Under the pieces are notes generated by a model. The model searched no databases, had not been told where the DNA came from, and saw nothing but the letters and a program-made list of their open reading frames with translations. From a virus (Duplodnaviria; Heunggongvirae; Uroviricota; Caudoviricetes), in the IMG/VR virus record IMGVR_UViG_2850808358_000009: 46,389 nucleotides of DNA, one strand, 5' to 3'. Made by a program: the position numbers and the translations under genes. Positions 10,639 to 39,411 of the stretch are shown here, one piece after another. Every line of letters starts with the position of its first letter. Position 1 is the first letter of the stretch.

Positions 10639-12311
10639 CCTGTTACCCCGCTGGAATAAACCGACACAAGCGCCGAATTCGTGATACGCCGACGTGCGTC
10701 ATCGGTAATACCCTTCACATTGTCCGACGTTGTGGTGACATTCAGTGTCCCGATATGCGTGGTTTCCGTTACGGTGGACTGCGATACAGGCGCAGGATGG
10801 CGCGACCGTATGGCCATTGCCGCACCCGGATAAGGCAGGTTCGCCAGCACCCGCGGAATATAGTTGCGGGTCTCCTCCGGAGCAGCAGCCAGTCCCTTAC
10901 GCTGAACATTTCCCTCTCCCCAGTTATATGCCGCCAGAGCCTTAGCCAGATCGCCATGAAAAAAACGTATCAGGCCACCAAGTTTTCTCGCGGCGGCATC
11001 AGCGGCTTTTTCGGGATCAAAGGCATCGTTCCCCCTCAGACCAAATTCACTGGCCGTCTTCGGCATGAACTGAAACAGTCCCATCGCACCAGCAGGTGAG
11101 ACGGCAAACTGATTACCACGGGATTCGGTGATCGCAACGCTGCGCAGCAGTCCGGGCGGCAGGTTATATTTTTCCTCCAGTTGAGACAGTTTCGGTTGCA
11201 GCCAGCCTAACAGGGCTTCCCCGGTCTTCGTCGGTCGCTGGCGGTTTTGCATGGCATTACCGAGTTTTTCCTGCGTCGCACGCATACCCTGTAGCCAGGA
11301 TTCACCGAAGGCTGCTTCCCTCCCGGTTGCCTGAGAAGCCTGAGTATCCAGCATGCCCTGCTGCCATACTGTGGGTGATTGTGCCCGGGTGATGTTGCCA
11401 GGCTTTTCTCCGGCATCCAGTTTTGTCTGATACGTCTCCATCTCTTTCTTATTGAAAAAGAAAGTCCCGTCTGAAGCCCAGAAAAAACCATGTGAATCCA
11501 GCCAGTCCTTATTTTCCCTGCCAACAATGGATGTCAGTAATCCGTCAACAACCGGGTAAAGCGCCGTTATCGCAAAAAGAAGGCCTCCGGGGCCACTGAG
11601 GGCTTTTGTCAGCCCCCGCACCCATGACGCCACTTTCAGCCCGATCAGCGTAATAATGACATTCTGCCAGCCCCCCAGTTCTCCGGCAGCCTTATTCGCC
11701 AGGGAGGCCACTGACTCAACGTCATTCAGAAATGTGGTGATAAACCTGTTCACTTCCTCCGGATGTTGCTGCATCCAGTCACCGAGTGTCTCCAGCCAGT
11801 GGCTGAGCTTCAGCGCGTACGGCATCAACGTGGTGCTAATCGTCATCCCGATGCCGGACCAGGTCTGATCGAGCTCAACAAGCTCTTTTCGTAGCTTACG
11901 GGCCAGCGCTGTACGCCCCGGCGTAACCTGCGAACGGGAAGTAAATTCGTCCACATCTTTCAGCGCATGACCGGAGCCAAGAAACTGCTGTCCGGCATAA
12001 CTGAAGCCCAGCGCGTTGCCGTAGGCAGTTTGTTCGGACTTTGTCAGTCGCGGAAAAATAACCGCCAGCTTGCGCATGATGGCTTCAGTGCTGTCAGTAT
12101 TTAAATCAACACTAATGCCCGCCCTGGCTGCAACCTGAAACAAATCCTGTAACACAGGATCAAAGGACCTTCCGGCTCTGAAGGCCGCTTTTGCATTTGC
12201 AAGCCGGGAAAATGCCCCAGACATTTCCCCTTCATCAACATTATTTGCCCGCGCAGCCCGTAACCATCCGTCCAGATTTCTGGCCTTCATGCCAAAAGCA
12301 TCAGATTCCAC
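10635..12311 (-). CDS. Tape measure protein, main body with C-terminal lytic transglycosylase (SLT) domain; frame broken from its N-terminal part
   Basis: 558 aa; SLT motifs (ESRGNQFAVSPAGAMGLFQFMP...AYNWGEGNV) near the C-terminus; located between chaperone and baseplate genes. This frame is open upstream of the annotated start into the overlap with 12356..12655. Confidence 0.7.
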   Translation of the reverse strand: MESDAFGMKARNLDGWLRAARANNVDEGEMSGAFSRLANAKAAFRAGRSFDPVLQDLFQVAARAGISVDLNTDSTEAIMRKLAVIFPRLTKSEQTAYGNALGFSYAGQQFLGSGHALKDVDEFTSRSQVTPGRTALARKLRKELVELDQTWSGIGMTISTTLMPYALKLSHWLETLGDWMQQHPEEVNRFITTFLNDVESVASLANKAAGELGGWQNVIITLIGLKVASWVRGLTKALSGPGGLLFAITALYPVVDGLLTSIVGRENKDWLDSHGFFWASDGTFFFNKKEMETYQTKLDAGEKPGNITRAQSPTVWQQGMLDTQASQATGREAAFGESWLQGMRATQEKLGNAMQNRQRPTKTGEALLGWLQPKLSQLEEKYNLPPGLLRSVAITESRGNQFAVSPAGAMGLFQFMPKTASEFGLRGNDAFDPEKAADAAARKLGGLIRFFHGDLAKALAAYNWGEGNVQRKGLAAAPEETRNYIPRVLANLPYPGAAMAIRSRHPAPVSQSTVTETTHIGTLNVTTTSDNVKGITDDARRRITNSALVSVYSSGVTG

Positions 12312-12355
12312 GGACAGACGGTTCAGATCACGGGCAAAACCTGTTACCAGGTTCT

Positions 12356-12655
12356 TCAGCCCCCCAGCGTCAGACTGACACCCGCAAGAGCCAGAATCTC
12401 GCTACGGATCCCTGAAAAAAAACGGGACGCCCGTTTCCCGGCATCTTCCATTCGACGGGCCGTTTTATCAGCATCTTTTCCGGTTTTTTCCAGTGATTCA
12501 CTGGTTTTCTTCTGTCCCTGACTGAATGTGTCAGCGACACCTTCCATCACCGTCGTGAGCCGGTTAAGGGCAGCATGTACTGCCTGTTCCCCGGCAGTAA
12601 AGTCCCTGTCATCAATCCCGAGGGACAGAACAAGCTCATCAAGTACCTGCGCCAT
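12356..12655 (-). CDS. Tape measure protein N-terminal fragment
   Basis: 99 aa ending right after a G6 tract; typical TMP N-terminus; ATG overlaps the stop of the GT-extension frame. Confidence 0.55.
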   Translation of the reverse strand: MAQVLDELVLSLGIDDRDFTAGEQAVHAALNRLTTVMEGVADTFSQGQKKTSESLEKTGKDADKTARRMEDAGKRASRFFSGIRSEILALAGVSLTLGG

Positions 12656-12899
12656 TTCTGTTCTCCTGTATCACCTGTTCGTTATGGGCATCCACATGAA
12701 TTATTTCCAGCAGATCCCATAAGTCCTGCACACCAAGGACAGAATCCAGTTCAGCTTTTGAAGCCTTACCGGAGGAGATAACGGTCGCAATGGTACGGGG
12801 AACATTAACGTAATCCACCACCCCGAACGGTCTGTCGGGGTCGAGATAACGCGGGGGGATATCTAGCTGACGACGGTAGCGAAAAAATCCACATGCAGC
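12639..12899 (-). CDS. -1 frame extension of the tail assembly chaperone (gpT analogue; candidate G-T fusion product)
   Basis: ORF-track ORF 12639..12821 is in the -1 frame relative to 12863..13267; by my reading this frame is open from about 12899 and overlaps the chaperone 3' end across a GAUUUUUUC slippery-like sequence. Confidence 0.5.
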   Translation of the reverse strand, partial: AACGFFRYRRQLDIPPRYLDPDRPFGVVDYVNVPRTIATVISSGKASKAELDSVLGVQDLWDLLEIIHVDAHNEQVIQENRNGAGT

Positions 12900-13267
12900 T
12901 TAAAGACCTCCGCACGCAGATTAAGACGGGTAATGATTTCTTCAATATCCTCTTCAACAAGCGGTCTCCGGATGCTGCGTTTTTTCGGATCGGGAACAAA
13001 CTGCACACAGTCCATCATTTCATCCATCAACGGACGCGCCTCATCAGGCGGAATTTTCGATAATGCTTTCAGCCCTTCAAGGGCAAGCGCAGCCATCCCC
13101 AGACTACGAACATCATCCGGTAACTCCACGCCACCACGCCCCATTGCCATAATGGCACGCATCGCCCACCATTCCGCCTGTGAGGCAGACATTTCGGTAA
13201 GATGAAATACCTTGCCCTTATCCCGTCCCTGACCTTCAATAGTGATAAATTTCTCTTTACGGGCCAT
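12863..13267 (-). CDS. Tail assembly chaperone (lambda gpG analogue)
   Basis: 134 aa ORF between tail tube and tape measure; ends ...HVDFFATVVS just after a U-run. Confidence 0.6.
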   Translation of the reverse strand: MARKEKFITIEGQGRDKGKVFHLTEMSASQAEWWAMRAIMAMGRGGVELPDDVRSLGMAALALEGLKALSKIPPDEARPLMDEMMDCVQFVPDPKKRSIRRPLVEEDIEEIITRLNLRAEVFKLHVDFFATVVS

Positions 13268-13713
13268 CAGTTAAAAACCTCCGGAGTAATGGTTTCCCAC
13301 TCAATAACCGCCTGCCCTGGCTGCAACGTACGAGCTGCATCAGGCAGCGCTTTCCATTGTTTGAGTACGCCATTCACGCAGGTATATTTACGGCCAATCG
13401 CCGGAAGCAGGACGACAGCGTTACAACGGAATACAGCCCGACTGGCCCGGGATGTGGTTGACCAGGTATCAAAAATATCCCGGCTGGGGGAATCCGGCAT
13501 GATATGAAACGTCTGGATAATGTTGCTGTACACAAATCCCGCGGACAGTTTACCGTCAATACCGCGGGCAGTTTCCGCCAGTACCAGTGGATCGGTGCCA
13601 TAAACGTTATCTGTTGCAAATCCCTGAAGTCGTACGCCGGAGGGATACAGATTATTCACTGTCAGCGTGATAATGGCATCCGCCGCAGTGATGGTGTTGT
13701 TGTTACCCGACAT
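13267..13713 (-). CDS. Tail tube protein
   Basis: 148 aa ORF immediately downstream of the sheath gene. Confidence 0.55.
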   Translation of the reverse strand: MSGNNNTITAADAIITLTVNNLYPSGVRLQGFATDNVYGTDPLVLAETARGIDGKLSAGFVYSNIIQTFHIMPDSPSRDIFDTWSTTSRASRAVFRCNAVVLLPAIGRKYTCVNGVLKQWKALPDAARTLQPGQAVIEWETITPEVFN

Positions 13714-15198
13714 TTACTGGACCTCCGTGGATGCAATAACAAGTTTCTGGATACTACCGCCGTCACAGTACCAGAGCGTACAGGACGGACTGCTACGGGT
13801 TGCCCGCAAAGAGGGAAGCATATCGCCGATATACAGGTAATAGCCGGTGGCAAACAACGTTGAAGAAACATCTGCCCCCACAACATTGTTAATCTGTTTC
13901 TTCTGCGCCTCCGTCAGTGTCACCCCTTCACGGATCCCTCCCCAGCGTTTGTACTGCTGGATAACGTCACTCATTGACGCTGCAACCAGCGCCCGCCCTT
14001 CATTGTTGTAGGGGATCGTCTGGTTTGACTTGAATAACGCGATCACCGCCCCCTGCAAACTGGCATTCAGCCAGATTTGCCCGCAGAAACTGTCCAGCCA
14101 TTTAAAATCACCGGTAATAGTGCCATCCGCCCAGTAATCTTCCACCACACTGTTTTCCGCATATTTTCCGTAGAAATTGTAACCTGCGGCGATCAGCGCA
14201 TCATAATCGCTGCCACTGGTAACATCAGCGGCCAGCCCCTCATACTCGCGGAACTTGAATGATACACGCCCCTCTGGTCGGACAAAATCAAGGCACGCTG
14301 CATACCCCAGTACCGCTGCAGCCCGGTTACCATCAGTCGCGAAAACAGGTACAACAGAGCTGTAGTTATTGACAGCAATTATCTGGTAAGCGATGTGTTC
14401 AGTACTGCCTTTTACTCTGGCGTTGCCGCTGGTTGTCCATGCCACATAAAAGTAACGCTTGCCCTGCCCGTTTGCCCATGCAGAAAACGCCAGGTGTTGC
14501 TCGTCAGTGACCTCAGATACCGTGGAAAAACCCGCCCATTGCTGGGAAGCGGCCTTAATGGCTGCCATTGTGTCAGGGACATCAGATACAGGCGCGCCCC
14601 GGGATATCACCGCACCGGTGTTACTGGTCATCTTCAGGAGTTCTGCTGCCGATCCACTGCCGAACGTTATCGTGGTACTCCCGGGTTTCGCCCCGGCGAC
14701 AGTAATGACAAAAGCATTCTGTGTGGTATCGAATACCACTGTAGCCACTGCTGCGGTCAGCGCTGTCTGTAGTGCCGTTGCAGCAGCGGCGAAGCTGGCG
14801 ACACCGTTAAAATTCACTTCAATGCTGACGCTTTTCCCGTTAATACTCAGCATCAGCGTGCCGGAAAGTTTTTGTAGCTGTTCAACAGTCGCGCCCTTAA
14901 ACGAACCGCTACGTAACCAGGCCGCCGATGGGGCAGGACTGAAACGGGAAAACAACAATTGCCCCGGCGTCCTGGTGGCATTTTTGAAGCCCTGGAAATA
15001 AAGCTGAGCGCGTGCGTACTCATCGGATAATGCACCAAAATACGCGGCCACATCATCCGGAGAGGAAAACGGAACCACAGTGCCGACCGGAAGTAACGGA
15101 TTACTGGTCAACAGCAGGCCGTTAAGATCGACGGCATTACCCGCCACAGCCAGCACACCGGGATTTATCTGTACATCTTTACTGAGTGGAATTGGCAT
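13714..15198 (-). CDS. Tail sheath protein (contractile tail)
   Basis: 494 aa; size and position as the first gene of the tail block. Confidence 0.65.
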
Positions 15199-15724
15199 TA
15201 TCAGCCTCCGTTGTCCGGGTGATCACGTTGTCAAAAAACATCAGGGAAGTTGTGACCACAGGGTTAATCTGCATCTGAATATCAAGCGTCCAGCGCGGTT
15301 CATACTGTTGCTGACCGTTGGGGAATGTGGTGTTAAAGGGCTCTGAGCAATACAGCGGGGAAATCAGCCCACCGCCCTGCCGGAAAAGCCGTACGGAAAA
15401 TTCAGACCGGAAAAGCGTTGCCAGCACCTGCGCGTTATCTGCCGCGTGAGGGCCGTAGAAATCAAGCTGGCAACGCCATTTTGTGGTACGGGTGATATGC
15501 TGAGAGCCCTCACCAGCCTGCGCTGGCGCAGAATATGCCACTACCGCAGTGGATAATCCGGTAACATCAATGCCCGTCATGGTGATGAAATTCCCCTGAG
15601 GCATCGGGACCTGGTTCTGCTGCGTTCGTTCAATCCCGGCATCAGAAAAAAGCCCCCGGAGATAATCACCGAGGGCCTGATAAAGAGCGCTTTCCGTAAC
15701 GGAGAGGGTCACACCTGAAGGCAT
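15179..15724 (-). CDS. Hypothetical virion protein (head-tail joining / tail completion region)
   Basis: 181 aa ORF in the structural block. Confidence 0.35.
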
Positions 15725-16074
15725 ACAATAACCCTCGTCCAGTCAGGCCAGATTTCCGGTACCTCAATCACCAGCCACGTTTCATCGCCAATAACAAATT
15801 TATCGCCTCCCTGTTGCCGGGCACGGTTAAGCCCGCACCAGTTACCATCGGTATACAATGTGGCGAAAACTCCCTGCTGGTTAAGATTATCAAGATGACG
15901 TAAATCAGCCTGGGTGACAGCCTGCTTTTGCACCCTGACGGAAACCGGATCTTCATACTCAGGTACGCGGGAATAATCTGCCTGCTGTGTACTCCCGCGG
16001 GAACGATAAACCAGCGCGTCTGTAAAGGGATTTACCCGACGTACTGCGCCGGAAACAATACCGTGAAAGTTCAT
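15709..16074 (-). CDS. Hypothetical virion protein
   Basis: 121 aa ORF, overlapping coupling with neighbours. Confidence 0.35.
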   Translation of the reverse strand: MNFHGIVSGAVRRVNPFTDALVYRSRGSTQQADYSRVPEYEDPVSVRVQKQAVTQADLRHLDNLNQQGVFATLYTDGNWCGLNRARQQGGDKFVIGDETWLVIEVPEIWPDWTRVIVCLQV

Positions 16075-16604
16075 TTTTTGCCCCCGTCTACAGAATAATC
16101 AACGCTGTCCATCATATGTCCGGTTTCAATAAGCGGGTTGTTAAAACCCTTTTGCCGGGCAGTGGATGCAGCGTTGGGCGGACTTTCCCAGTCGCGAACA
16201 GACATCTGCAACTGCCCTTTGATATGTTCTCCCATACACACCAGAGCGGTCGCAGTATCAAAATCATTCGCCCGTAATAAGGTCGCCATTTTTTCGCCCC
16301 ATTCGGGACTTTTATGTTCGATCATCTTACGGAAGAACGGACGGGGGGGAATGGTGACCGTGTGCTCAGGAATAACCACATCCTGAACAAAATTCCCTTT
16401 ACCGGCTTTGACAAAGCGGTGCCCGGTTTCTCCCGTTTTTTCGTTATAGCGAAAGTGGAGCGTCTGCTCACGGGCGGGTATGACCGCTCTTCCACCAAAC
16501 TCCTGAACTGCGGCAATATAAGCCACTGACGTACCGTCAGGGTAAGTTGCTCCCTCAAGAAAACCCACTTTGAGTTTTTTTACCCAATGAAAGGTTCGCG
16601 GCAA
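16071..16604 (-). CDS. Head-tail region structural protein, apparently missing its N-terminus through a frameshift
   Basis: 177 aa with TTG start; the natural-looking N-terminus ([27 protein letters not shown]...) lies in another frame at about 16555..16657 and ends right after an A-tract. Confidence 0.45.
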   Translation of the reverse strand: MPRTFHWVKKLKVGFLEGATYPDGTSVAYIAAVQEFGGRAVIPAREQTLHFRYNEKTGETGHRFVKAGKGNFVQDVVIPEHTVTIPPRPFFRKMIEHKSPEWGEKMATLLRANDFDTATALVCMGEHIKGQLQMSVRDWESPPNAASTARQKGFNNPLIETGHMMDSVDYSVDGGKK

Positions 16605-16645
16605 CCTGTTTCAGCTTCTGCCGGAACTGTTTGCCACCTGTGACT

Positions 16646-17104
16646 TTATTTACCATCGACGCCCCTCCCGTATCCCCGGTAATAATGCCCCGGATATCGC
16701 GAAGGTGACCCCCCGGAATGATACTGCATTGAGCGGTATGGCGCTGTCGCCTGCCAGTAGTCAGCACCCCAGGGGGTCTGGAGATACCACCACGACGCAT
16801 CATTACTGCCGCTATTATCCACCGATACCGATACAGAACCTTCCGACGCACTGGTGATACGCCCCACCAGACCAGCCTGCCCGTCTCTCCCGTTTCCCAG
16901 CCCCCGCAATGCGCACAGATGCGCAACCAGCAGGAACAGAAGCTGTTCCCGCTCCTTCAGGTCGGTAACCGGACTGTCGTCCGTGTTATCCAGGTACAAC
17001 GCGGTCGCCTGGTTAAACACCGCCGTCAGTAGCTCCGGTGTCACCGTGGAAAACTCCGGGTACAGACTGACAAACATCCGACAGTCAAACGTCACCGTAC
17101 CCAT
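16646..17104 (-). CDS. Head-tail connector-like protein (DUF4054-like)
   Basis: 152 aa; N-terminal [13 protein letters not shown]...LLTAVFNQA pattern recalled from DUF4054 phage proteins. Confidence 0.45.
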
Positions 17105-17109
17105 AGCGT

Positions 17110-17457
17110 TTACTCCTGAGGTTTACCCATCACTTCATCATTGCGGTTAACGCCCGGAGCCGGATTTTTCTGCGGCAGCGGTTCAAGGCCGGATTTAACG
17201 GCTTTCTGCTCCGTAGCCTGCGAGACTGCACTGTTCGCCTTATCCTGCGCAAAAATAACGCCATTTTTCACATAAGGTTGCTGTCCGTGCTCCGCCAGCC
17301 AGGCGTCAAAAAACACCTTATCGACCTGCGTCAGACCATAGCCCCCCACAATTTTAACCGCGTTATTCCGCCAGCCTGCCACCTGAACCCGTTTCTGACC
17401 CACTTCCAGCACCAGACCGTTCGGCAGTTTGCAGCCCACTGTTACCATTTCAGCCAT
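17110..17457 (-). CDS. Hypothetical head protein
   Basis: 115 aa ORF downstream of the major capsid gene. Confidence 0.35.
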
Positions 17458-17460
17458 AAC

Positions 17461-18489
17461 TCACACCCCCAGCATTTGTGCATACGCCAGCGGCTGGCGA
17501 ATAATCGCCCCCCAGGTACCAGCGGATTTTTTCTGTTTCCAGGAAGACGTATCTGCCACTACCGCATGGGCGCGCATTTTTTCAGTGAAAGCGCAATAGC
17601 CTGTATCCTGTTCACCCAGACGCTCCGCGATAAGCTGTACCAGCTCGCCAGCGTCAGAGGTGTATTCCACCGCCGTTTCAATGGTCATCGCCGGGAAATT
17701 TTTCGCCAGCAGATCGGACACGTTAACCCTGTACTGGTTTGTTTTGGTGAGGTTCACCTCTGCCAGCGGCGACATGCACAGTTTCATTTTGTCGGTACGC
17801 TCAATATGACCGTTAGTCTGTTTCACCAGTTGCTTAAAGAGTTTCACGATATCGTCATACACGCCCTGTCCGTCCTTGTCGTCCCACTTCAGTTTACCAT
17901 CAACGGTATCCGGGGTGATTGGTGCAGATAACGACGGATCATTCAGCAAACCGTAGTTCGTCAGTCCGGCAATACCGTAGAAATAGGACTTATTCTGGAA
18001 CTTATTCAGCGTCAGTGCTGACGCCACGTTCAGCTCTGCCGCCCAGCCAATACGGGCTGCGCCGTACATCTCCAGCTCACGTTCGCCCCATACGGTGAAG
18101 GTCTGGAAGTGATAGCTCTGGCGCGGTACCCAGTTGACGTTTGCGCTTACCACCCCGTTGTTGCTGTAATCCCCGTAGGAACTCACCTCCCCGTCAGATT
18201 CTGCAATCGGGAATTGTGCCGACAGTGTCGTCCAGTCACCTTTTTTGGTTTCGCCCAGAATCTGAGCGGCTTTCATCGGCGTCACCAGCACGCGGATCAG
18301 TTCTGGCTCAACGTAATTGGTGAAATACGCAGGGATACCGCTGTTAGCCGCTGTGACCAGCGCAGGCTGCGCGTCCATCGCCAGTCCGTAATCGGCGGCG
18401 TACTCCTTCGGCAAATAAGCCTGTGCTCCGGGAAGAATAATCCCGTAGTCGCGACTTGCCGTCGCATAATGCTGTTTAAATTTATTCAT
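17461..18489 (-). CDS. Major capsid protein
   Basis: 342 aa; position after the scaffold-like gene, size and composition typical of a major capsid protein. Confidence 0.65.
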
Positions 18490-18971
18490 TATTTGCTCCA
18501 GGTACTGATCTTAATGACTTCTTTTGCCGCCGCAGCGCTGGCAACGGAAAACCAGGTTTCGACAAACCCCGCCATCGAGGTGCCAGCCGCCCCCGTGGCT
18601 ATCTCCCCGGTGGCCAGTGAGGCAAATACTTTCTGCCCGATCGTCGCAGTAGTGGTGGTCAGCGCCCAGAAATCCCCCGACACCATCAGGGTGCATTCAC
18701 GCCCCGGATAAATGGTGTTCGAGTCCCCGGCCAGCCATTCCACAATGGAAGCCTGCCCGTCACGAGGAACAAAACCCGCCGGTGCGCCGGCCCCCTTATT
18801 AGCGGCAACACCTTTGGTTACCCAGGCAAACCGGGCAATTACCAGCCCGTCAGGGCCGGTAATCAGCCCGCCATCTCCCGCCACATACGAGGCATGAGGG
18901 TTAGCACTGGCAAACGCCCCCGGAATACCCGGTGCCGGGTACTGGTTCATGTGTGTCTGAAAAGTATTCAT
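18489..18971 (-). CDS. Hypothetical head protein (possible decoration protein)
   Basis: 160 aa Gly/Ala-rich ORF between scaffold and capsid genes. Confidence 0.35.
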
Positions 18972-18972
18972 A

Positions 18973-19851
18973 TCAGTAACCTCGTTTCAGTTTTGCACCG
19001 GGGAAATCTGCCGCAAACGTCGATGCGCTGGCCTGATCCATCGCCACACGGGGAGAGGATTTGGCCGTCTGCTTCTGCTCAACGGCAAACTTCACCATGC
19101 TGCGGTACGCACCGGGGTGAATACCCTGGATATCGATCCCCGTCTGTTCCAGCGCGGTACGGTAAACATCTTCGGCGCAGTCCATCGCCACCACATCGCC
19201 AATCAGCGGTCGCACTTCAGCTTCAGCCACACGGACGGCGCGGAAATTTTCAGCAGCCCGTTTCGTTGCCTGGTCAGTTGCCAGCCTGATTGCTGCATCC
19301 ATCGCAGGTTTATCGACTTTCACATCGTCGGGTTTCACATCAGCCTCTTTTGTTTCGGGGGCTTCGTCGGTTGTCGGAGACAGTGCGGATTTAATTTTTT
19401 CCAGCACATCATCAGGAACTTTGCCGGACAGCAACGCCAGTACACTTTCCATCGGGCTGTCGGTATCAAATGCCTTCGACTCGTCAGTTAACCCGGTATC
19501 ATCATCCCCGACCAGCTCCGGTACGGCTTCTGCTGATTCCATCAGTTGCGCCAGCTCCGCCGGTTCAATATCCATATCCTGTGCCAGCCGTTCGCTGTAA
19601 GCAGTTTTTACCGCGCTGGCGATAGCTGCCGGACGCTTATACTGCGCCATCAGGCGTAACAAATCCCCGGGAGCCGCATCCTGCGCCAGACGCGGCGCAA
19701 GATAGGTTCCCAGCGCGGTAAGCACCGCCACTTCTTTTTTACTCAGTTTCATGCGTTTTAGCTCCTGAGGGAGAGAGTCCATAACAAGACAGTCCGACCC
19801 TACCCGGCCATCGCCGACCAGGGCCACATGATTTCCCACGATATTCCGCAT
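18973..19851 (-). CDS. Scaffolding-like protein
   Basis: Acidic, Ala/Glu-rich helical protein upstream of the capsid gene; true start may be the internal MKLSKKEV methionine. Confidence 0.5.
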
Positions 19852-20393
19852 AACGCCGTCATACGGCTCACCGTCGGGGTGGTTCCCGGCGTCATATCTG
19901 CCACATAGGCATATGACGATGAGATTTCCCGTTGTTCATCCGTTTCTATCCCCGCGATGGCGGAGTTGTCCCAGATGGACATGCCATTAACCAGATAGGT
20001 ACCGTCAAACTCGCTGTTGGCATGAGTCGTCCCCACCCGGTACTCGCGCGCGGGCGCGCCCGGATAATCGGGTTTGTGTCGGCACAGGACGGGAATATTG
20101 TTGAAGGTTGAAACTGCCTTGCGCAGTTCATCGGGGTCACGGTAAAGCTGATAAAGTTTTTTGGGGTCGAGTCCCAGCGCTTCCGCCCCCGGTATTTCAT
20201 ACCCGAAATAACCGCAGACGTTCGCCTTGCTGAGATTACTGCGCTCAATCTGGAGGCGACCGACTTTATCGAACTGCCTTACCGATGCCCGGTCAAACGC
20301 CAGCATTTCGGTAATAATCATTTTTTCTCCAGTCCGGGAATAACGGCCTCCCAGCCACACCGGCAGTTGATTTCTTCGCCCGGCAGTACCCAC
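19800..20393 (-). CDS. Hypothetical head-assembly protein
   Basis: 197 aa ORF between the Mu F-like gene and the scaffold gene. Confidence 0.35.
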
Positions 20394-21139
20394 TTACCAT
20401 CCAGAAACATCCCCTTTCGCAGGTCAAACCGTTTACCGTTCGCCTTCACATGCGACGGACGCCATGTTTTACCCGCGCGGGAATGCCTCCAGACACCTTC
20501 AGTGATACCCACCGAACGCTGTCTGGCGGCCTGCATTACCGACGTTGCCTTATTGTTCTGGTCGCGGGCAATCAGCGCCGCGCGCCGTCGTGTGATGCCG
20601 TAACGTTTTTCCAGTTCATCGGTCAGCGTTTTCAGGTCACGTCCCCGGCCAACAGACTGCATGACCAGTGTTTCCACCTGGGTGAGATGTTGCTGCGGGA
20701 TGGAGCGAATGAGGTTCACATTCTCCGTGATGCTGGCCTGAAGTGCGGTATTCATCTCCGTTGTCATACGGAAAGGAACCGTAAACCCGGCATCACGGAG
20801 CGCAGTGTACAGTGACGCATCGCTGTTTTTCAGGACATCACCGGCAAACCGCCTCGCCAGCCGCAGGGCCATTTCGTCAAAATTTTTCTGCCAGCGCCGG
20901 GCAAGTTGCTGCATGGCACCACGCATCAGGTTAACGGGGGACGCATCCTGCGCGAGGTCTGTTTTACGGTACTCAGCCCGCAGCCAGTAAAGTACACTGT
21001 TGTGCATCCCACTGACGGCATTATCCAGTTGTCTGCGGTACCAGGCCTCAATCCCCGCGTTGGGTGAAATCCGCCTCAGGGTCTGCATTCGGGCCTTGCG
21101 GCGGATTTTCTTCGGTGTTGTCAATTTCAGTGTCGTCAA
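20318..21139 (-). CDS. Head morphogenesis protein, Mu F-like / SPP1 gp7 family
   Basis: 273 aa; position after portal, with conserved C-terminal region typical of Mu F-like minor head proteins. Confidence 0.65.
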
Positions 21140-22598
21140 TTTCGATGTCCCCGCTCAGGTCAATACCGCTGTACGGGCTGTCCTGCGCAGTCGCCAGCCG
21201 TTCGCGTACTTCGTTATTGGTCACTGCTCCGGTGCTCTCATAAATCTGATCCGTTTCCGCCTCAGTTTTACGGATATTCGCCAGTTGCTCTCGCGTCAGC
21301 TCATGCAGGGGTTCAAATTCAAACGTGATATCAGGATCGATATCGCCGAACTCAGACAACTGGATAATATCCAGCACCTTTTTCAGCGGTTTCTTCAGAA
21401 GACGGGTGGCAAGTGCAGCAATGGTGTCGTAAAACACCCGGATTTCACCCTCACTCGACGCATTCAGTCCCGTTGGGCTCAGCCCGGCGAATTTTACGGA
21501 CGGTATGGCACTGACAAAGAACATGTGTTCCTGTGCCTGCGCCTGAAGGGTGTCGAGGCCGCTCAGGGGAGTGTTGAACTGGAAAAACTCTTCGTTCGTC
21601 TTGTCCAGCATCAGCAGCCCGCGGTTATCACGGGTACGGTTAAACAACTCCGCGCGTTTTGCGTAATTCGGGTCCCTTTTACCACTTAATACCTGTGTCA
21701 TATCCGTCTTAATCCCGCTCAGCGAAAACGAATGCAGCATATCGCCCACGCTGTCGCGTGTTCGCAGCCAGTTATCAACATAAGGCTCAGCAATCTGAAC
21801 CAGTGACAGGCCGCCAAAGTTGTAGGCCGGCTTCAGCATGTCCGGAACCGGACGGGAGATCAGATCAATCATGCGGCTGGCGTGAACCGTTTTTCCCATT
21901 ACGTACCATTCGGACGGACGGTAAAAATCATCACTCAGCGGATTATCCGCGTTATATATACCCGGATACGTCCAGACGGGTTCAATAACACGAAGCCCCA
22001 GCAGGGAACCTTTCGGGATTTTTTTGTCGGAAATAAACAGTCCGGATCCCAGCTCCGCCGGGTCAGTCCAGGCAGATATACCCGATGGCGAACGCACATC
22101 AATATAAATCTGCCCTCGCCCGAAAAAGCCGTCGTACTCAATCGCCAGTCTGAAAACGTCCTGTACGTTATAGTGCTCCAGTGCGTCAGTAAGCTGCGCT
22201 ATGCGTGACGCGTGGCTGTCGTCCCCTTCTCCGACCGCCTTAACCTTTATCCACTTACGGGTCATCTCCTCGGCAAGCACACTGACCATACGCCGGTACT
22301 CCGGTAACTGCGCCTGAAGTGCCAGATACGGATAGCCCGGGAAACCACCATAAACAAAATCAGGATAATGACTGTTCAGGGTGTCATACGGTGTTGCATC
22401 CATTGCCAGCACAGCGTCGCGAACCGGTGCCGGGATAACGCCCGGTGGTGGCTCATAGCGAACAAACTCCCTCCGTGGTTTCTGCCGGACGGAAGCGATC
22501 ACCTCATCGTTAATTTCCGGTGGCTGTGGTTCAGGTTGTTTGTCCGGTACCGCCGGCGCTGACGGTTCTTTTCGTTTAAACGGCCACATCAGATCCAC
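21048..22598 (-). CDS. Portal protein
   Basis: 516 aa directly downstream of the terminase large subunit; acidic C-terminal tail. Confidence 0.65.
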
Positions 22599-24208
22599 TC
22601 CATAAAGTCATCAGAAATTACGATGGGCATTTCCATCGGGGCATAAGCAATCATCACAGAATCAGCCAGGTTTGGAGATTTCGTTCCGTCAGGTTGCTTA
22701 TCCACAAGAATTTTTCCGGTGGCATTTTTTGACCAGGTAGGTTGTGACAGCTCCATCAACAACCGGTCTTTATTTTCCATTGTGCTGCTGATGGAAATAA
22801 TCTCATCCGGGTCATACTCCATACCCTGTAGTGCACGAAATGTATTGCGGAATAATTTGCGAAGATGCCACCACCCCTGGGCTTTGGCATTGACAAAAAA
22901 GTCCTTATTCAGACGAGCCGGTTTACCATTATCACCGGGAACAGCTTCATTTTCAGGATGAAACACGCTCCCGCTGCCCCGGAATGGAGTGGCGGTGATT
23001 TGACAGATGCCCTCCGCTTCACGCAGTTCGTTGATAGCGCGCGCATCACCACGAACGCCAGCACCCAATCCGTCCTCATCAAAGCGAAACTCATCGGCAC
23101 CAAAGTCATCGCACAGACCAAAAACCTTAACCACAGAGTCATAGATGTCACTCCCCTTACCTGACCACTCCTGTACGTCATTCAGCAGGATGCCATAACG
23201 GAGCGAACAGGCGTTTTTATCCCGCCCTTCGTCGGCGACATCCATTGCACCAAGCCGTTGGCCGCCGGGCTGAATGCCCAGTCTGATATGTGCATCAACC
23301 GCAGCCTGTACCCATTCTGAGGGGATCAGGATGCCTTCTGCTGATGCCTGGTAATTAAGATCCAGTTCCTGGGCAACGATGACTGGGTTATCAATTTTCT
23401 CGCACTCCTTGTGATACCACTCATCGTCTTTACGCGGATCGCTACGCCAGTGAAACGTAAACACCGGGATTTTTCCACTGTGCCGCTTCTGTGCGAAGGG
23501 GTTGTTCATGCCGTTAACCGATGAGAGATCGATACGACATCGGGTTGTCTGGGAAAGCGCGGCATCAATAAGTAATGGTCGCTGGAGAAAAGCAGCCTCA
23601 TCCACAAAATAAAGGGTCGTACGGTCACCACGACCGATATTATCGCCAGCCTCACCTTTGATAACCGCGCCAGTTTCAGGAAACTCAACACGCATATATG
23701 GCGCGTGCTTCTTCTCGCTCCACGAACCGCGAAACTCTACAGGTAGCGTTTCCACGAACTTGCGCGCCTTCCAGAACAATGCTTTCGGGTCACCGGTGCT
23801 GTCGACGTATTCCTCTTTACGGGAGCCGAAACCGATAACCATTTCTTTGTTGAAGAGACAAAGCGAGCAGGCCAGTCCGATCGCGGTCCAACTGAGCCCC
23901 ATTTCACGGGATTTTTCGGTAATACCATTCTCCCGATTGCTCCAGCGTTCCATAATCCAGTGGATCCACTCCTCCTGCTTAGGGAAGAGTAAAAACGGAA
24001 TGGTCACCGGCAGGCCATAATCAATATTACGCGGGTCCGTTGTCATGCCCCAGTCGATAATGAACTGAGCCGGGTTGGTACGGTAAAACTGTTTTAGTGC
24101 AGGCAATATTTCAGGATTCTGGCGAATGCGCTGTAGGCGTTCCATCCGCCATTCAAAAACCATCTGGTAATCAGGATGTTTAAAATCGAAGGGGAATGGT
24201 AACGGCAT
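22589..24208 (-). CDS. Terminase large subunit
   Basis: 539 aa; ATPase-like N-terminal and nuclease-like C-terminal halves; follows the small subunit. Confidence 0.8.
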
Positions 24209-30601: not shown

Positions 30602-31230
30602 ATGAATCTTGCCAACCGAGCTAAAAAACGCAGAACAGAACTAAACTTAACTCAGGTCGAAGTTGCGAAACGAGCGGGCATTAGCCAGCAGTCGATTGAA
30701 GCTATAGAGAATGGGAAAACACTTAAACCACGCAATCTTCTTGCTTTAGCGTCAGCTCTTGAATGCGATCCTAAATGGCTACTTCTTGGGGCGATGTTGT
30801 TACAGATTTCAACTACGGAGCCCGAAGGGTGCCTGTTCTAAGCTACGTACAAGCCGGGGCTTTCACAAGCGCTGAGCTACTTCGTGAAGAAGGCGATTTC
30901 GAATACATTCTCACCACGGCTGAGCTATCAGAAAGTTCATTTGCGCTACGTATACGTGGGGATTCAATGGAACCTGAATTTAAAGAGGGGGACATCGTTA
31001 TAATTGACACTGACGTATACCCTACTCCTGGTGAATTCGTTGCGGCATGTAACGGTAGCCACGAAGCAACGTTCAAAAAATACCGCCCGGTAGGGATTGG
31101 CGCTAAAGGTGAGGAAGACTTTGAACTTGTTCCATTGAATAGTGATTACCCTATTTGTCGCTCCTGGGAAAAACCAATTAAGATCATAGGGACAATGGTA
31201 GAACATCGCATATTCCGCAGAAAAAGATAA
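30602..31230 (+). pseudogene. CI-like repressor (HTH_XRE plus S24 LexA-type peptidase domain) interrupted by a frameshift between the domains
   Basis: ORF track has the HTH part (30551..30841) and the S24 part (30775..31230) in different frames overlapping by about 66 nt; the S24 part has the GDSMEP motif. Confidence 0.7.
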
Positions 31231-36483: not shown

Positions 36484-39411
36484 TTGTCTGAAAACATTCT
36501 ATGGGGCGACCTGGAAACCTATTGCGAAATCCCTATTACGAACGGTACCCATGCGTATGCCGAAGGCGTTGAAGTGATGCTGTTCGCATGGGCTATCAAC
36601 GACGGGCCCGTAAACGTGTGGGATATCACTGCCGGTGGTGGTATTCCACACGGCTTATACGAAGCAATCGCAGCCCCTGAGACCCTGCTTTATTTTCATA
36701 ACTCTCACTTCGACCGCACCGTCCTGCGTTATGCAATGCCGCGACTGGCACCGCCAGTCGAACGTTGGCGCGACACAATGGTGCAGGCGCTGGCGCACGG
36801 CCTCCCGGGGTCTCTGGGGGAACTCTGCGAAATACTCGGCGTCCCGCAAGACAAAGCGAAGGACAAAGAAGGTAAAGCGCTGATCCAGCTGTTCTGTAAG
36901 CCACGCCCGAAAAACAGCAAACTGCGTCGGGCCACCAGTAAAACCCACCCAGAAGAATGGCGGCGCTTTGTTGCTTACGCCGGGCTGGATATCGAGGCAA
37001 TGCGCGAAGTCTATAAACGTCTGCCGAAGTGGAATTATCAGGGGACAGAACTGGCGCTCTGGCATCGTGATCAGCAGATCAACGACCGGGGCGTCTGCAT
37101 GGACATTCAACTCGCGCGCGCTGCGATCGAAGCGGTAGACCAGGAGCAAAAGCGCCTGGCAAAGCGTACACAGGAAATGACTGATGGCGAAGTGCAGGCA
37201 GCCACACAACGGGACGCGTTGATTAAGCACATCGTTGAATCCTACGGTGTGGAGCTACCAGACATGCAACGCAGTACCCTGGAACGTCGTATAGCCGACC
37301 CCGATTTACCATCTGCCGTGAAAGAACTGCTGGCTATCCGCCAGCAAGCCAGTACTACCAGCACCAGTAAATACAAGGCACTGATGAAAGGCGTAAGCCA
37401 CGACGGGCGCTTACGCGGTACGCTACAGTTCTGCGGGGCGTCACGTACCGGGCGCTGGGCCGGACGGCTATTCCAGCCCCAGAATCTTCCCCGCCCTTCA
37501 CTAAAACAGGAACAAATAGACGAAGGCATCGAAGCACTGAAAGCCGGATGTGCAGACCTGCTGTTTGACAATATCATGGAACTAACCAGTTCAGCGTTAC
37601 GTGGCTGCATTATCGCGCCAACAGGTAAAAAACTGGTGGTAAGTGACTTGTCGAACATTGAAGGCCGTATGCTGGCATGGCTGGCGGGAGAAGAATGGAA
37701 ACTGAATGCATTCAGAGAGTACGACGCCGGAACGGGTCCGGACTTATATAAACTGGCGTATGCAAAAGCTTACGGAATTGAAGTTGAGCGCGTCACCAAA
37801 GACCAGCGCCAGATAGGTAAAGTGCTGGAATTGGCTTGCATAGCTCCGGATACTTTAGTGCTCACCGATAAAGGCTATAAGCCGCTTGTTAGTATTTCGG
37901 GCGCGGATTTGTTATGGGACGGAGAAGAATGGGTAAAACACGAAGGACTGATTTACAGGGGGTACAAAGCCTTAATATCACTGGACGGAGCAAAAATGAC
38001 CCCGGATCACCAGGTGCTAACCCCTACTGGATGGAAGCTGGCAAACCTTATCGCTTTAAACAAAAATACGCTTCACCAAAGCCTGGAACTTGCTTCGGAG
38101 AACTTACCGTTATCAAAGAACTGGAAAAAGTACCCGGAAAAGACCGAAGGATACTTGTCAAATGCAAATGTGGTGCAATGCCTCACACCGCAACAATCAG
38201 CAATCTCCTTAAAGGGAAAAGTACCCGATGTAACATTTGCGCAAAGAAAAAGCATAACGAGTATCGTAAAAAATTCTTATGCTATGCGGATGCTATTGCA
38301 GATGACGAAACCCGTCGCAGGCTACTTAACCGATTGTCTGCCGCAATCAGCCGTTGCCATAAACCCACCAACAGGTTGTTTCACAACTACGGCGGTCGGG
38401 GGATCTACGTTTGTCAGCTATGGCAGGAAGATAAAAGAGCTTTTTTGCTACACGTCAGGGAAATCAAAGGGTTTAATGACCCAAAGTTGGAAATGGATCG
38501 CATCGACAATAACAAAGGCTACGAACCGGGTAATATCCAGTTCGTCTCCAAAGCAGACAATAACCGCAACAGAAGAAAAATCGCAGACCTGCAAAAGCGT
38601 ATCGACGAGCTGGAGCGATGTTTACGACATTGCACATGCGGGGCCTCGAAACAGATTCACGATTAAAACCGACTCAGGACATTTAATCGTTCACAACTGC
38701 GGGTACGGTGGTGGTGTGTCGGCCTTCATCACTTTTGCACTGGTTTACAGTCTCGATCTCGACGAGCTGGCGAACGCCGCACTGCCAAACATTCCCCGCG
38801 ATGTTATCCGCGAGGCGAAAAGCTGGTACTACGAATCGGTTAAACGTAAGTCAACCTACGGCCTTTCTGAACGGGTATTTATCGCCTGCGACTCACTTAA
38901 ACGTCTCTGGCGCAGGGCGCACCCGGCGACCTGCGATTTCTGGTACGAACTGGAGCGCACCGTCCGCACTGCAATCGCCACACCGCAAAAAACATTGTAT
39001 TGCGGTTATCTTAAAATCCGCCGCGATGGCGCGTGGCTGCGCATACAGCTACCATCCGGACGCGCGGTATGCTACCCGTCTCCGGTTATCGAAAAAGGGA
39101 ATATCACCTACATGGGTGTTAACTCTTATTCGCGTAAATGGCAACGACTCAAAACCTACGGCGGAAAGCTGGTAGAGAACGTCACCCAGGCGGCCGCCCG
39201 CGACGTTCTGGCCGGAAACATGCCGCTTATCGAAGATGCCGGTTACAGCATTGTGCTGACGGTACACGATGAAATTATAAGTGAGGCCCCTGACTCACCC
39301 GATTACTCAGCAGAACATGTCAGCCAGTTACTGGCAACCGTTCCTGACTGGGCCACGAGCATTCCACTAAACGCCGGAGGATTCGAATCTTACAGATACC
39401 GGAAAGATTGA
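36484..39411 (+). CDS. Family A DNA polymerase (3'-5' exonuclease plus polymerase domains) containing an intein
   Basis: 975 aa single ORF, TTG start after a GGAGG SD; DLET exonuclease motif near the N-terminus; after removing 37837..38697 the junction reads [21 protein letters not shown], which fits PolA motif B. Confidence 0.75.
37837..38697 (+). other. Intein within polymerase motif B (Cys-initiated, ends His-Asn, next extein residue Cys)
   Basis: Starts [17 protein letters not shown] with a TPDHQVLT block-B-like motif; ends [27 protein letters not shown] followed by C; 287 codons in the polymerase frame. Confidence 0.7.
37914..38666 (+). CDS. HNH-type homing endonuclease in the -1 frame relative to the polymerase, nested inside the intein
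   Basis: Zinc-binding FGELTVIKE...CKCG...CNICAKK region and an HNH-like motif [27 protein letters not shown]. The protein-like part spans roughly 38073..38613; true start unknown. Confidence 0.6.

Follow-up and report, generated by a model that had tools for sequence, protein, structure and literature searches.

A tape-measure gene split at a G6 tract in an ipaH-linked prophage probably reflects a homopolymer under-call

The closest counterparts of the locus described here are the phage tail tape-measure proteins that carry a C-terminal SLT domain. In the tail modules of phages, the tail assembly chaperone genes reportedly share a conserved −1 programmed frameshift of the lambda G/GT type. 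A comparison of another kind is offered by unpolished PacBio RS-era assemblies: the historical Shigella PacBio genomes of Kim et al., 2018 were never short-read polished and are described as containing "numerous indels in the homopolymers" (Yassine et al.; PMC8795385).

Here we analyze a 46,389-nt stretch of DNA (the window; IMG/VR record IMGVR_UViG_2850808358_000009) in which a tape-measure gene is read as two ORFs that part at a run of six Gs. With one G restored, its product is like the SLT-bearing tape-measure proteins in profile match, domain and gene position, and the missing G that breaks the window ORF is the sole difference. The initial annotation had left three causes standing side by side, namely a defective prophage, a phase-variable tract or a homopolymer error; our analysis favors the error, to which we would give a probability of roughly three in four, makes a real deletion unlikely and speaks against phase variation.

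The tape-measure gene and its tail module

Both parts of the split gene are encoded by the minus strand. A 99-aa N-terminal fragment of a tape-measure/lytic tail protein, whose exact product is WP_077788320.1, occupies 12356..12655 and ends in GVSLTLGG, with CTG GGG GGC TGA as its last codons; its frame closes, as had been stated from the outset, directly after the G6 tract (12360..12365, C6 on the plus strand, corresponding to CP026877.1:2031338-2031343), which is G7 in relatives. The gene goes on in the −1 frame (10635..12401), which is open from 12401 to a stop at 10635 and has its first start codon, a GTG, at 12311, giving a 558-aa ORF. The overlap between the two frames, first estimated at about 45 nt, measures 46 nt (12401..12356). 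Inserting one G into the tract yields a single ORF of 673 aa, in line with the roughly 670 aa that had been foreseen for the fusion, and this repaired protein is 100% identical to P0016, the commonest intact allele, which is found on 188 contigs.

A second G6 run lies inside the tape-measure gene at 11671..11676 (C6 on the plus strand). It is unaltered in the window and varies among sister PacBio assemblies, being contracted in four of them (L017, L021, L023 and L024), where the contraction splits the C-terminal part of the protein into pieces of 169 and 332 aa.

The restored 673-aa protein aligns through residues 1-672 with positions 1-656 of the 657 in the phrog_2013 profile, ‘lytic tail protein’ (E 8e-246), while the 99-aa piece alone matches only profile positions 1-76. 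Because the fused protein matches this profile end to end, a chance juxtaposition of two ORFs can be dismissed. The restored protein also matches tape-measure PHROGs, the related phrog_2276 and phrog_9570 being annotated as ‘tail length tape measure protein’. Within the main body of the protein, where an SLT domain had been expected, residues 493-598 match PF01464 (E 8.7e-26; 90 bits against a cutoff of 21), which places the predicted SLT lytic transglycosylase domain at 10863..11180 on the minus strand when protein positions are converted into window coordinates.

Gene order agrees with this assignment. Upstream of the tape measure lie a sheath gene (494 aa, E217_gp31-like), a tube gene (148 aa), a 134-aa tail assembly chaperone (12863..13267, minus strand, phrog_1932) immediately upstream, and a 60-aa ORF (12639..12821, minus strand) that lies in the −1 frame relative to the chaperone and shares 17 nt with the beginning of the tape-measure gene; baseplate and hub genes follow downstream, as judged by neighbor annotations and Pfam matches. 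The order is that of a tape-measure gene (sheath, tube, chaperone pair, tape measure, baseplate), and it is the chaperone upstream that supplies the context for reading the split gene as one. By profile, domain and position, then, the gene is identified as the tape measure of a contractile-tailed prophage, with a predicted C-terminal SLT lytic transglycosylase domain.

At its tail-fibre end the prophage is followed, just beyond its border, by ipaH, which encodes an IpaHb-type T3SS effector E3 ligase (window 1..1812, plus strand), and its integrase end adjoins yfhL (44.7-46.4 kb), of which about 260 nt fall within the window. EIEC genomes each contain 2-5 copies of the same prophage family, and many of these copies are full of IS600, IS2, IS1, IS66 or IS4 insertions. 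Hundreds of unrelated E. coli prophages carry counterparts of the tail-fibre and fibre-assembly genes at 2016..5100, though at no more than 78-83% identity, while very few genomes contain the remaining structural genes; the tail-fibre region is a mosaic cassette.

The chaperone pair deserves a separate comment. An in-phase slippery heptamer, T_TTT_TTC (12881..12887, minus strand), precedes the chaperone stop codon by six codons, and a −1 shift at this site runs open into the 60-aa ORF, which would then serve as the extension of a 209-aa fusion. The arrangement is like that of lambda G/GT, and the heptamer is likely to be a genuine programmed frameshift site of this tail module. Both ORFs are annotated as separate ‘hypothetical proteins’ in all RefSeq relatives, and this unannotated frameshift is a practically useful by-product of the analysis. 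The lambda comparison does not apply to the tape-measure split, where neither the split architecture nor a slippery site is conserved.

It might nonetheless be proposed that the tape-measure gene is itself recoded, with G6 as the true sequence and the full-length product arising through −1 frameshifting on G_GGG_GGC before the UGA or through G-adding transcriptional slippage. The sequence CT G_GGG_GGC TGA at 12367..12356 formally fits the X_XXY_YYZ pattern with a stop codon directly after it, the −1 frame is open across the heptamer, and an 8-bp hairpin starts about 4 nt downstream. The RNA downstream of the heptamer has a minimum free energy of −24.2 kcal/mol, with z = −1.21, and 23 of 200 shuffled sequences fold as well. 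G_GGG_GGC is not known as an efficient heptamer. Moreover, the fused ORF is the norm of the family, both among close relatives and among homologues of 32-38% identity, the heptamer and the two-ORF architecture are missing from the distant homologues, and the canonical frameshift of the tail module is already found one gene upstream. We therefore regard recoding of the tape measure as extremely improbable.

Tract length among relatives

Comparison of the tract with homologous prophages, which had been put forward at the initial annotation as a check on the split, gave a clear pattern. Of 36 tracts typed (34 independent other copies, plus the window itself counted twice among the G6 tracts), 24 are G7, 12 are G6 and none is G8. 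The G7 tracts come from 14 copies in nine complete RefSeq E. coli genomes, from the LT-68 draft and from all nine IMG/VR contigs. In the nine complete genomes, which are of the EIEC type, the locus is present at an identity of at least 99.7% and every match is one base longer than the query; the extra base lies in the tract, and 14 of the 15 copies fetched read G7. Where the annotated G7 copies are free of IS insertions, the tape measure is one 2022-nt CDS, and the gene that appears as two ORFs in the window is a single uninterrupted ORF in the 24 other, G7 copies. Some of these have no other difference from the window over 2.3 kb: four G7 copies (L001, L004, L005 and L013) show 0 further differences over 2301 nt. 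At the initial annotation, a G7 tract with a continuous ORF on resequencing had been named as the outcome that would mark the split as an assembly error, and these other copies, together with the contraction problem of the source batch, point to that outcome indirectly.

Outside this group of near-identical copies the tract is not kept. An exact-pattern scan for the tract context, allowing G5 to G9, found no match in GTDB species representatives or JGI metagenomes and matched in IMG/VR only. A protein search of contigs for distant homologues returned almost exclusively SLT-domain-only matches and one usable full-length homologue (L034). In the distant homologues, from a Klebsiella phage (38% identity) and Paraburkholderia (32%), the protein is uninterrupted, with conservation to either side of the junction, and the Gly-Gly codons at the junction are written GGC GGC or GCG GGT, with no G run. 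The G run is therefore incidental codon usage of this lineage.

The G6 form has a narrower distribution. Its 99-aa product, WP_077788320.1, is present on 13 contigs, nine of which are megabase chromosomes, and G6 is confined to long-read chromosome assemblies and one short Logan contig of unstated platform. The contig (SRR34940150) is 1.6 kb long. A protein record, EPM6537252.1, likewise of unstated platform, also represents the G6 form. For the S. dysenteriae haplotype, 132 contigs encode the exact repaired G7 protein and 3 the G6-derived 506-aa piece. The E. coli genome CFSAN029787, which we take to be PacBio-only, carries both forms, with G7 in copy 1 and G6 in copy 2; copy 2 (CP011416.1:4684460-4686480) is otherwise clean, with no frameshifting indel over 21 kb apart from the G6 tract, and the gene is recorded by PGAP as a frameshifted pseudogene.

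The occurrence of two tract lengths in near-identical copies, even within CFSAN029787, is what would be expected if the tract were a contingency locus in which frequent changes between an ON state (G7) and an OFF state (G6) toggle tail production. Several observations speak against such phase variation. No G8 was seen among the 36 typed tracts (34 independent copies), G6 occurs only in long-read-only assemblies and the one contig of unstated platform, none of them demonstrably short-read or polished, and the tract is not maintained in the Klebsiella phage and Paraburkholderia homologues. There is also no obvious selective logic in switching a tape-measure gene. For a contingency locus in an enterobacterium with proficient mismatch repair, a G7 run is short. 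A phase-variable tract is thus scarcely credible here, and even phase variation and programmed frameshifting taken jointly are very unlikely to account for the split.

Source assembly and its error signature

Positions 2356..22655 of the window are identical to GenBank record CP026877.1, which is therefore its source. Most of the other chromosomes that encode the 99-aa product share the accession and assembly block of this record (CP0268xx / PSSx). One accession of this block, CP026832, is a PacBio genome of Kim et al., 2018, and from the accession and assembly-number block we infer that CP026877 belongs to the same unpolished PacBio project; a literature search for papers naming CP026877 found none.

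Six sister assemblies share the same IS-riddled prophage remnant, which allowed their consensus sequences to be compared directly. Two of them (L017 and L021) have 0 mismatches and 18 one-base indels over 20,306 aligned nt, all of the indels in runs of 3-7, and the other pairs differ by 6-21 one-base indels each. These differences depend strongly on base and run length. A/T runs of 4-8 nt never deviate from the majority (0/1139), while G/C runs deviate in 2% of cases at a length of 4, 13% at 5, 12.5% at 6 and 42% (5/12) at 7, mostly by contraction. Indels that are base-specific and biased towards contraction, and that come without substitutions, point to consensus error and not to mutation. 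The window resembles unpolished PacBio RS-era assemblies of this kind (Kim et al., 2018; PMC8795385) in its one-base G/C contraction, in its many indels with few substitutions, and in that its sequence, once repaired, equals the common allele.

The tape-measure tract is not the only such change in the window. Against relatives that agree with one another, six further one-base indels are private to it: C5>C4 at 7956 and C3>C2 at 8058, both in the sheath-initiator gene, T6>T7 at 16575 in a 194-aa virion gene, G5>G4 at 19876 in a DUF2213 gene, G5>G4 at 30788 in the LexA-like repressor region, and a 1-bp deletion outside any homopolymer at 38155. They break the sheath-initiator gene (twice), the 194-aa virion gene and the DUF2213 gene. 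Four of the six are G/C-run contractions typical of the batch; the changes at 16575 and 38155 fall outside this profile, and some real decay of the prophage is therefore possible. Over 8.3 kb the window differs from two of the G7 copies (L001/L005) by 3 substitutions and 3 indels, and in the 32.7 kb compared, 5 G/C-run miscalls were observed where the batch rates predict about 9.8.

Two candidate lines of independent support for alleles of the window were considered and rejected. The T7 at 16575 appeared to be a real inherited allele, in view of an exact match to its 165-aa product, but the matching contigs read T6: short draft contigs with 0 mismatches to the window have T6 where the window has T7. 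The exact match was misleading because these short contigs start inside the gene, so that the gene caller picked the same internal ATG. The second candidate was CP091398.1 (L016, 2594960-2615259), which has three indels in common with the window, the equivalents of 12360, 16575 and 19876. With 33 indels and 18 mismatches in 16 kb, this sequence has an extreme load of errors, and around the three common indels it shares no SNP with the window, so we do not take it as independent support for G6; indels in common but no SNPs suggest that tracts prone to error changed recurrently, and speak against descent from a common ancestor.

By a hand estimate, a three-indel coincidence between the window and CP091398.1 would arise by chance about 1% of the time, and it is not fully explained. 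A difference of another kind is seen in the DUF2213 gene, where a 15-nt direct-repeat unit (TTTCACATCGTCGGG) at window 19318 is present once in the window and twice in RMDEC465 (L010), leaving the frame intact.

A real deletion or an under-call

The alternative that has to be weighed most carefully is that the tract really did shorten from G7 to G6, through 1-bp replication slippage that inactivated the tape measure of a decaying Shigella/EIEC prophage; such a prophage would be tail-defective and retained only for its ipaH cargo. The family certainly decays, since other copies have IS insertions in their sheath, tube, baseplate and tape-measure genes, including two sites within the tape-measure gene itself (nt 83-85 and nt 545). 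These verified lesions, however, are insertions that lie elsewhere in the gene and not changes in the tract, and in the window there is no second lesion, the gene being otherwise identical to the intact allele. A G7 run belongs to the longest G/C-run class in the prophage and would be the likeliest site of real slippage, but the same class is where the batch miscalls about 42% of the time. The sole frameshift in the clean copy 2 of CFSAN029787 and the G6 of the Logan short contig are consistent with a real deletion, as are the two window indels (16575 and 38155) that do not fit the G/C-contraction profile. On the other side, all chromosomal observations of G6 come from long-read assemblies, and the same haplotypes are G7 by a wide margin, with 188 and 132 contigs compared with 13 for the 99-aa fragment. 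On balance we consider a genuine deletion unlikely.

The account that we favor is that an unpolished long-read assembly under-called the homopolymer. The true tract would most likely be G7, with the codons CTG GGG GGG CTG specifying Leu-Gly-Gly-Leu, and in the real DNA the gene would be an ordinary single-ORF tape measure of 673 aa in an ipaH-linked prophage of the Shigella/EIEC type. CP026877.1, a long-read sequence with apparently no short-read polishing, would have read this G7 as G6, and an under-call of that kind would create an artificial frameshift. From the sequence comparisons presented here, the tape-measure split is most likely not a real feature of the prophage.

A caution follows for the use of this record. 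G/C runs are systematically shortened in the batch to which the source assembly belongs, so it is not safe, without reads, to treat the split tape-measure gene or the other broken phage genes in the window as recoding sites, as pseudogenes or as loci of phase variation. We think it highly improbable that the G7 tract is a hot spot of real slippage through which tail production in Shigella and EIEC is turned off in a recurrent and reversible way, or that low-level frameshifting at G_GGG_GGC-UGA leaks full-length protein; if either were true, it would mark a stage in the domestication of prophages that carry effectors. Should G6 simply prove to be the true sequence, it would be just one more inactivating lesion in a prophage family that is known to decay in Shigella and EIEC.
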